7,024 bases of DNA from a virus (lineage: Duplodnaviria > Heunggongvirae > Uroviricota > Caudoviricetes). A model generated the notes under the pieces. The model ran no database searches and was not told where the DNA came from. It was given only the letters and a program-made list of their open reading frames with translations. The translations under genes were made by a program, and so were the position numbers. Within the stretch, counting starts at the first letter, position 1. The number at the start of each line of letters is the position of its first letter. Positions 6,855-7,024 of the stretch are shown piece after piece. Where the stretch lies: positions 1 through 7,024 of IMG/VR virus record IMGVR_UViG_2547132272_000021, one strand, 5' to 3'.

Positions 6855-6856
6855 AT

Positions 6857-6887
6857 ATATGCTGTATATCACAAAATAGCAGCATAT
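6857..6887 (+). other. AT-rich hairpin (ATATGCTG ... CAGCATAT) directly after the tape-measure-like gene stop
   Basis: 8-bp exact inverted repeat (6857-6864 / 6880-6887) with a 15-nt loop; T-runs follow at 6905-6910 and 6923-6935. Not a canonical GC-rich terminator. Confidence 0.3.
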
Positions 6888-6932
6888 TAATTCAATGCGT
6901 CCGATTTTTTATTCGGTGGTGTTTTGTTTTTT

Positions 6933-6971
6933 TTTCGCGCTTTTTGTGAGATGCTTTCGCGCTTTTTGTGA
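6933..6971 (+). repeat. Two perfect 17-bp direct repeats TTTCGCGCTTTTTGTGA spaced 22 bp apart
   Basis: Copies at 6933-6949 and 6955-6971, read directly; a perfect 17-mer repeat is unlikely by chance in 7 kb. They lie in non-coding DNA after the last gene, just before composition becomes GC-rich again. Confidence 0.45.
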
Positions 6972-7024
6972 AACGCCTCATCCAGGCCAGTACACAGGAA
7001 GGCAGGAGGCTGGCAGCAAACAGA

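Follow-up and report, generated by a model that had tools for sequence, protein, structure and literature searches.

What are two perfect copies of a 17-bp sequence doing side by side behind the last gene of a small, virus-like gene block? They lie in a 7,024-nt stretch of DNA (positions 1 to 7,024 of IMG/VR virus record IMGVR_UViG_2547132272_000021; the whole stretch analyzed is called the window below), and an initial annotation made from the letters alone had proposed that they are iterated binding sites for a regulator, recombinase or packaging protein, or else mark the boundary of an element. We find that the window contains a complete Mu-like element of 6,898 bp with TG...CA termini (83-6980, + strand) and no transposase gene. 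In our judgment the repeats are very probably the cores of R2 and R1, the sites of a Mu-family DDE transposase at the right end (attR) of a satellite that depends on a helper phage of the Mu type. Two of the proposed roles, iterated recombinase sites and an element boundary, survive in this answer; the suspected integrase does not, its place being taken by a Mu-type DDE transposase that the element itself does not encode.

The window has exactly two copies of the repeat, TTTCGCGCTTTTTGTGA, both on the + strand, at 6933-6949 and 6955-6971. Their starts are 22 bp apart, and they lie precisely where first noted, downstream of the last gene, a tape-measure open reading frame (ORF) whose stop is at 6854. 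Two matches were found in 0 of 200 dinucleotide shuffles, with 3 mismatches allowed. Read on the minus strand from position 6980, the DNA is TGAGG CGTTTCACAAAAAGCGCGAAAG CATCTCACAAAAAGCGCGAAAA, which is how the right end of phage Mu is arranged. The 17-mers form positions 5-21 of two 22-bp sites of the MuA type: R2 (6932-6953, - strand), 28-49 nt from the terminus as is R2 of Mu, and R1 (6954-6975, - strand), 6-27 nt from the terminus as is R1 of Mu. The two sites abut, and the terminal CA follows at 6979-6980. The 22-bp period had been read as two helical turns; it is instead the length of one site, two of which lie end to end as R1 and R2 do in Mu.

Sites were scored against the Mu consensus TGNTTCAYTNNAARYRCGAAAR, which has 19 specified positions and was checked on Mu record AF083977. 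There it fits L1 (6-27) and L3 (151-172) at 19/19 and, counting from the right end, R1 (6-27) at 15/19, R2 (28-49) at 17/19 and the inverted R3 (56-77) at 19/19. By the same measure R1 of the element scores 17/19 and R2 15/19. The whole window contains five matches of at least 15/19, all of them at the two ends of the element and all pointing inward, against a mean of 0.43 in shuffled sequence. As an exact string the 17-mer gave three single matches in IMG/VR, with unrelated flanks and none of them a tandem pair beside a terminus; in the JGI (Joint Genome Institute) metagenomes the tandem pair matched only the contig from which the window itself comes.

The boundaries of the element were drawn from megablast matches and from target-site duplications. 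The sequence TCCAG stands at 78-82, directly before the TG at 83-84, and identically at 6981-6985, directly after the terminal CA; the termini are the same in all E. coli copies. When the flanks are joined with a single TCCAG, the resulting 121 nt run contiguously, at 99.2% identity, through faeI of E. coli plasmids, the minor subunit gene of F4/K88 fimbriae, so the right-hand duplication fits an empty site and the GC-rich stretch that follows the repeats is the other half of a split host gene. The turn to GC-rich sequence, remarked on in the initial annotation, is thus real: it marks the passage, at 6980, from element DNA back into host sequence, a faeI-like fimbrial gene. A 7,891-nt JGI metagenome contig includes the window at 100% identity, with the same boundaries, and this longer source contig (L040), together with the empty-site comparison, excludes that the repeats lie inside a downstream gene.

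The other end of the element is in the same window, with its terminus at 83, the matching 5-bp duplication and inverted cognate sites, although no matching repeat had been seen at the left edge. L1 (88-109, + strand, 18/19) is 6-27 nt from the left terminus, as is L1 of Mu; an L2-like site (216-237, + strand, 15/19) also points inward and is the weakest of the five; an L3-like site (257-278, + strand) scores 17/19. They escaped a search for exact repeats because the left-end and right-end sites have only 13 of 22 bases in common, though they share the 22-bp consensus. The starts of L2 and L3 are 41 bp apart; in the helper prophage described below, the sole reference with a scored L2 (13/19, at 111), the figure is 40 bp. 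For L1, R1 and R2, the distances from the TG/CA termini equal those in both Mu and the helper prophage.

The element is inserted at many different sites. It is present whole, at 95-98% identity, in 8 complete E. coli genomes, and a ninth (STEC388) has a copy truncated by IS1. Megablast matches in the eight genomes start at 77-83 and end at 6980-6986 of the window, each at another chromosomal site: copies lie within ycaN, yddA, yiaK, ddpC, puuC and an autotransporter gene, in the gap between flgH and flgI, beside a lyxose isomerase gene and near acuR. Including the window there are nine independent insertions, most of which split genes, and every one has a perfect 5-bp duplication (TCCAG, GCCAG, TCCAC at two different sites, CTGAG, ACCGG, ATGGA, GCGCC and ATGTG). 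Seven of the nine fit N-Y-S-R-N (binomial P = 1.4e-5), which is reportedly the target preference of Mu. In at least two genomes (RIVM_C036569 and RIVM_C039629) the element is present twice, at separate places, and insertion sites differ between closely related isolates. One copy (L003, in E. coli 48956) has mismatched flanks, ATGTG on one side and ACCGG on the other. Its left flank is that of the copy beside the lyxose isomerase gene and its right flank that of the yiaK copy (by comparison with L024 and L005), and since the flanks derive from two different copies we take L003 to be a recombinant between them; recombination that deleted or inverted the intervening DNA seems to lie behind it.

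No transposase, integrase or MuB gene was found among the window ORFs in Pfam, PHROGs and NCBIfam searches, so the enzyme that moves the element must act in trans. Its source is most probably a co-resident, full-length Mu-like prophage. A Mu-like prophage tail module is present in 52 of 5,426 E. coli genomes, and all nine genomes that carry the element are among those 52. The helper prophage in RIVM_C036569 is 33.7 kb long, with canonical Mu ends and a 5-bp duplication (ACGAG), and encodes a repressor, Ner, a MuA-type transposase and a MuB-type ATPase, as well as terminase, portal and tail proteins. Its tail-fibre gene is annotated as incomplete (L011 36905-37243) and its length falls about 3 kb short of that of Mu; this one prophage may be impaired in forming plaques. 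Measured against the consensus, the sites of the satellite do as well as those of the helper itself, which makes recognition of the former in trans by the helper transposase plausible.

We propose that the helper transposase would bind L1-L3 and R1-R2, and that its subunits would then pair the two ends and cut after the terminal CA. Together with MuB it would join the element to N-Y-S-R-N targets, replicatively during helper growth, leaving the 5-bp duplication. The element may also be packaged, perhaps in smaller heads made from its own capsid proteins. Just inside L1 lies CCGGGATTAGG (117-127, + strand), a candidate packaging (pac) element with a GGGATTA motif; Mu, the helper prophage and every satellite end type examined likewise carry such a motif immediately inward of L1. 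Motifs of the CGGGA or GGGATTA type were observed at 117-127 and 137-151 of the window, at 51-75 of Mu and in the left ends of three relatives (L016, L029 and L033). The pac site of Mu itself presumably lies just inside L1, where GGGATTA-type motifs recur. This left-end motif, a possible packaging site, and a fragment of the small terminase subunit suggest packaging, and that the element has head and scaffold genes of its own points to small heads.

The element belongs to a family that reaches beyond E. coli. The window had no near match among 50,697 phage genomes and is thus no known phage. Homologues of its major head protein were found at 61-79% identity in Klebsiella, Citrobacter, Yersinia, Serratia and Salmonella, and at 44-45% in Shewanella and metagenomes; a scan of species-representative genomes with the same protein gave one distant match, in Vibrio, and the element is absent from that genome set. 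Every relative whose context was examined has the same compact, transposase-free architecture, on contigs that are in several cases 6.5-7.4 kb, and a truncated gp27, a Mor-like protein, a protease/scaffold, a major head protein and a tape measure are common to them from Escherichia to Shewanella. A 6,899-nt Logan contig carries the family-specific protein P0075, an indirect hint that such elements may be packaged.

Termini could be fixed in four further end types, and all are TG...CA: (i) Citrobacter (L016, duplication GTGGT); (ii) Shewanella (L029 and L030, duplications CTGGC and CCGCA); (iii) Salmonella enterica GCA_013591785.1 (L033 1987-8863, duplication GTGTG); and (iv) a 6,691-nt IMG/VR metagenome contig (L036) with no visible duplication, which ends at the element termini to within one base, as expected if its flanks were heterogeneous, stemming from multiple copies or from packaged DNA. 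For Klebsiella, several candidate duplications fit the single insertion, and the boundaries could not be fixed from it. Mu-consensus sites were not found at the element ends of Yersinia (L013), Klebsiella (L014) or Citrobacter (L016-L018), and the Salmonella and Shewanella ends have other repeated motifs. The spacing is kept all the same: the right-end block at 6-27 matches itself best at an offset of 22 bp in Mu, the helper and five satellite end types alike, though in the Citrobacter right end this offset ties with two others. Absence of the repeats from all homologous elements, which would have spoken against the initial annotation, is excluded: the same repeats or an analogous pair 22 bp apart are present in every one examined.

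The Salmonella copy shows how such ends may come and go. It is 94.9% identical to the window over 571-6855, and both of its end segments are replaced by segments with another site type, TGTGAACAAAAA, found at position 20 of the left end and at positions 20 and 42 of the right end. Because the interior is conserved while both ends are replaced, end modules appear to be exchanged as units, presumably to match the transposase of another helper.

The genes of the element were annotated by sequence searches of Pfam, PHROGs, NCBIfam, Rfam and the PDB, with AlphaFold and Foldseek for one product (orf6); all features below are on the + strand. The left part carries a P1/P4-type RNA immunity module, with an isrK-like small RNA (552-630; Rfam RF01394, 59.4 bits against a gathering score of 50) and a C4-type antisense RNA (680-767; RF01695, 77.1 bits against a gathering score of 45, E = 2.7e-14) upstream of a gene for an Icd-like protein (824-1021; NCBIfam NF033153, E = 3.5e-20). 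RefSeq annotates an ORF for an 'ash family protein' that overlaps the C4 RNA; it may be no real gene. Next comes orf3 (1014-1418, 134 aa), whose product had no Pfam, PHROGs, NCBIfam or PDB-sequence match; its position after c4-icd gives rise to the idea of an antirepressor. The following gene (1372-1734, 120 aa) encodes a truncated homologue of gp27, which the Mu record annotates as the small subunit of terminase. Pfam Phage_Mu_Gp27 matches its N-terminal part only, residues 1-67 are 46% identical to the helper gp27, and a terminator-like hairpin (1742-1762) follows the gene.

A Mor-domain protein with an N-terminal extension is encoded at 2055-2783, with the Pfam Mor domain at its C-terminus and a match to Mu Mor (PDB 1rr7, E = 4.7e-4). 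Its neighbour orf6 (2770-3192, 140 aa) is specific to this element family, with 7 homologues at 48-98% identity, and those with examined contexts are all in elements of the same family; the AlphaFold model has a mean pLDDT (predicted local distance difference test) of 65 and gave no Foldseek match below E = 1. The virion genes comprise a head protease/scaffold of the Mu gpI type with a shortened C-terminus (3316-4140; Pfam Mu-like_Pro, E = 8e-49), 33% identical to the helper I protein, a major head protein of the Mu gpT type (4127-5023; Pfam Mu-like_gpT, E = 6e-89), 43% identical to the helper T protein and followed by a terminator-like hairpin (5030-5047), and a tail tape-measure protein (5067-6854; Pfam PhageMin_Tail, PHROG 973). 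Terminase genes beyond the truncated small subunit, portal and a full tail set were not found among the window ORFs.

The tape-measure gene is mosaic. Compared with its counterpart in the helper (L011 27235-29091), it has three DNA segments of 81-88% identity, the proteins being 47% identical overall, and it is 84% identical in DNA, over its full length, to the gene of a Mu-like prophage in ETEC1732; this pattern suggests repeated exchange with helper tail genes. After it, just inside the right-end sites, comes the AT-rich hairpin reported earlier, which does fold (6857-6887, + strand, 9-bp stem, z-score -2.4). A weaker stem and a T-run extend beyond the 9-bp stem, with a fold energy of -16.7 kcal/mol, and the structure is a candidate terminator. 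It is kept in the E. coli copy L001; in the Salmonella copy, the end segment to which it belongs has been exchanged for another.

A phased triple A/T-tract repeat upstream of gene I (3245-3291, + strand) is a candidate for the right arm of a central strong gyrase site. Over 52 bp it shares 88% identity with the region upstream of the helper's gene I (L011 20760-20810). Its homologue in Mu (17891-17935) is found 11 to 56 bp rightward of the gyrase cut that is annotated at 17879/17880, which places the motif in the right arm of the Mu strong gyrase site. That site is essential in Mu and is built of bend-inducing repeats (PMC10052514; PMC6379681). Three TTTAAAC-type repeats occur just upstream of gene I in all satellites examined, at about 43-46% of element length. 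The motif was also considered as a copy of a helper C-dependent late promoter; this was dropped after comparison with the annotated Mu record, because the Mu motif lies upstream of a terminator and the P_I promoter, beside the gyrase cut site.

Several observations weigh against the transposase-site reading. That a transposase binds the sites or moves the element is something we infer from comparison. An outward-facing R3 of at least 13/19 was looked for in the 100 nt next to the right terminus and not found, and R1 of the satellite differs from R1 of the helper at about 6 of 26 terminal positions. Searches for the helper operator/enhancer region in the element gave only weak, non-significant similarities, and we claim no enhancer. 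The carriers represent about three independent lineages (chance about 1e-6), so the co-occurrence with Mu-like prophages is weaker than the raw count implies. No helper was found for the Salmonella, Citrobacter and Shewanella end types: the exact Citrobacter and Salmonella end strings had no match in IMG/VR, and the Salmonella left end had none in the phage or E. coli collections. Finally, a satellite without a transposase cannot integrate in a naive cell and would need co-infection or a resident helper.

This last point speaks for the alternative that survives best, namely that the element is mobilized by the helper transposase and is chiefly an island for interference against phages. Its variants of the capsid, scaffold and tape-measure proteins would poison the assembly of Mu-like phages, and it would be passed on for the most part vertically or by ordinary transduction, not as a packaged satellite. 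Interference with the helper is usual among known satellites, and the element does carry divergent copies of exactly the proteins that co-assemble with helper parts. The GGGATTA motif held in common with Mu and the small-terminase fragment suggest packaging instead, as does the IMG/VR contig L036, whose ends at the element termini are expected if flanks vary. We consider this account improbable, though it deserves to be kept in view, and it is compatible with transposase sites at the ends, since interference and mobilization are not exclusive.

Much less likely is an inert remnant of a Mu-like prophage, left by deletions and with vestigial transposase sites for repeats. All recognizable genes are of Mu type, decayed prophages are common, and individual copies do decay, as shown by the IS1 truncation in STEC388 and by an IS insertion in a Yersinia relative. 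A remnant would hardly be found at nine separate sites with intact ends and perfect duplications, twice over in some genomes. Nor is the gene order a simple subset of that of Mu, with gp27 before Mor and a foreign C4/icd module; the compact architecture is kept down to 44% capsid-protein identity, in Shewanella, and end modules are swapped as intact units. The proteins are 24-47% identical to those of the resident helper prophage and the same transposase-less set recurs across genera, which argues that the element is not a fresh deletion derivative either. With its immunity module, small-terminase homologue, Mor-type activator, own head proteins, tape measure and gyrase-like motif, it looks like a satellite rather than wreckage.

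The weakest alternative, that the repeats serve an element-encoded gp27-like or Mor-like protein in packaging or regulation, or form part of a terminator of the tape-measure operon, draws on their position after the last gene, the hairpin and the T-runs and on the two predicted DNA-binding proteins of the element, and we give it hardly any credence: the repeats fit the MuA consensus, their distances to a CA terminus bordered by the target duplication are exactly 6-27 and 28-49 nt, inverted cognate sites stand at the other terminus, the packaging site of Mu is at its left end and not its right, and in Salmonella the sites are replaced while the interior, gp27 and Mor included, is 95% conserved, which disfavours an own binder that co-evolves with its sites. 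The gp27-like protein, put forward in the initial annotation as a binder of the repeats, is a shortened homologue of the small terminase that may recognize pac and is unlikely to bind them.

If the repeats are indeed sites for a helper transposase, the element has outsourced both integration and replication to that enzyme, a parasitic strategy different from those described. To our knowledge all satellites (P4-like elements, phage-inducible chromosomal islands or PICIs including the capsid-forming ones, phage-inducible chromosomal island-like elements or PLEs, and phage-inducible chromosomal minimalist islands or PICMIs) use an integrase of their own, and most described phage satellites replicate with their own replication module. 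Full-text literature searches and reviews yielded no description of a Mu-type satellite. A wider proposal, for which we would put the chances at about even, is that this is the first satellite family to parasitize transposable (Mu-like) phages, with att ends that mimic those of the helper for its DDE transposase, a central gyrase site of the Mu type, heads built from its own capsid and scaffold proteins, and helper switching by swaps of whole end modules, in a range from Enterobacterales to Shewanella.

Such a family would link non-autonomous transposons and phage satellites, which are usually treated as separate fields. It would also offer a natural system for studying how much att-site divergence a MuA-family transposase tolerates and how end modules and helpers co-evolve, and for asking whether a central gyrase site matters at 7 kb and how the capsid size of Mu-like phages is set. 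There are consequences for the hosts as well: in E. coli of clinical and veterinary origin, the genes that the element enters and inactivates include those for flagella, fimbriae and transporters, and recombination between copies has apparently joined the flanks of two loci. Annotation pipelines label these elements only as scattered 'phage' genes.

Among known systems the closest is the right end of Mu and D108 (attR with R1, R2 and R3). The terminal CA, the abutting direct 22-bp sites at 6-27 and 28-49 nt, and the consensus are alike, as are the position of L1 (6-27 from the left end), the distance of about 40 bp between L2 and L3, and the 5-bp target duplication. Unlike Mu and D108, the element has no inverted R3, its L2 and L3 lie 24 bp further in, and its R1 and R2 agree at 19 of 22 positions, against 16 of 22 in Mu. 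It is also far smaller than Mu (6.9 kb against 36.7 kb) and has no A, B, c or ner genes. An autonomous transposable phage would have A, MuB, terminase, portal and a full tail set, none of which is present beyond the terminase fragment; what we find is an element without essential virion and replication genes that co-occurs with a specific helper (9 of 9 carriers among the 52 of 5,426), and this is what defines a satellite.

In having both Mu-type ends and no transposase, the element resembles a laboratory mini-Mu, in which Mu ends surround cargo and transposase is supplied in trans (PMC10052514; PMC5847225), and like one it would need a helper Mu for transposition and packaging. It differs from mini-Mu in being natural, conserved across genera and equipped with regulatory, capsid and tail genes of its own, and no enhancer was identified in it.

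With capsid-forming PICIs and P4-like satellites it has in common the small island, the incomplete set of virion genes and the tie to a specific helper, and with the former also a major capsid protein and a protease/scaffold of its own. The C4/CI-type antisense RNA and icd-like gene are as in P4 and P1, and the 'ash' ORF overlapping the RNA is as in P4-like satellites. Unlike the latter, it was found to contain no integrase, primase (alpha), Psu/Delta/Sid or AlpA domains; unlike capsid-forming PICIs, it has no integrase, AlpA or primase-replication module, and its head and packaging set is limited to the protease/scaffold, the major head protein and the truncated small terminase. It also carries a tape measure, and we know of no described satellite that does. 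Whereas PICIs and P4 have an att site at a tRNA gene or other fixed locus, the element is found at many sites, with Mu-type duplications.

The remaining likeness is to MITEs (the miniature transposable elements with inverted repeats) and other non-autonomous transposons, which keep the ends recognized by a transposase that is encoded elsewhere (reviewed in PMC11389934). The element does the same on another scale: it is 6.9 kb long, it has about nine genes, virion proteins among them, and the presumed source of its transposase is a phage and not an insertion sequence.

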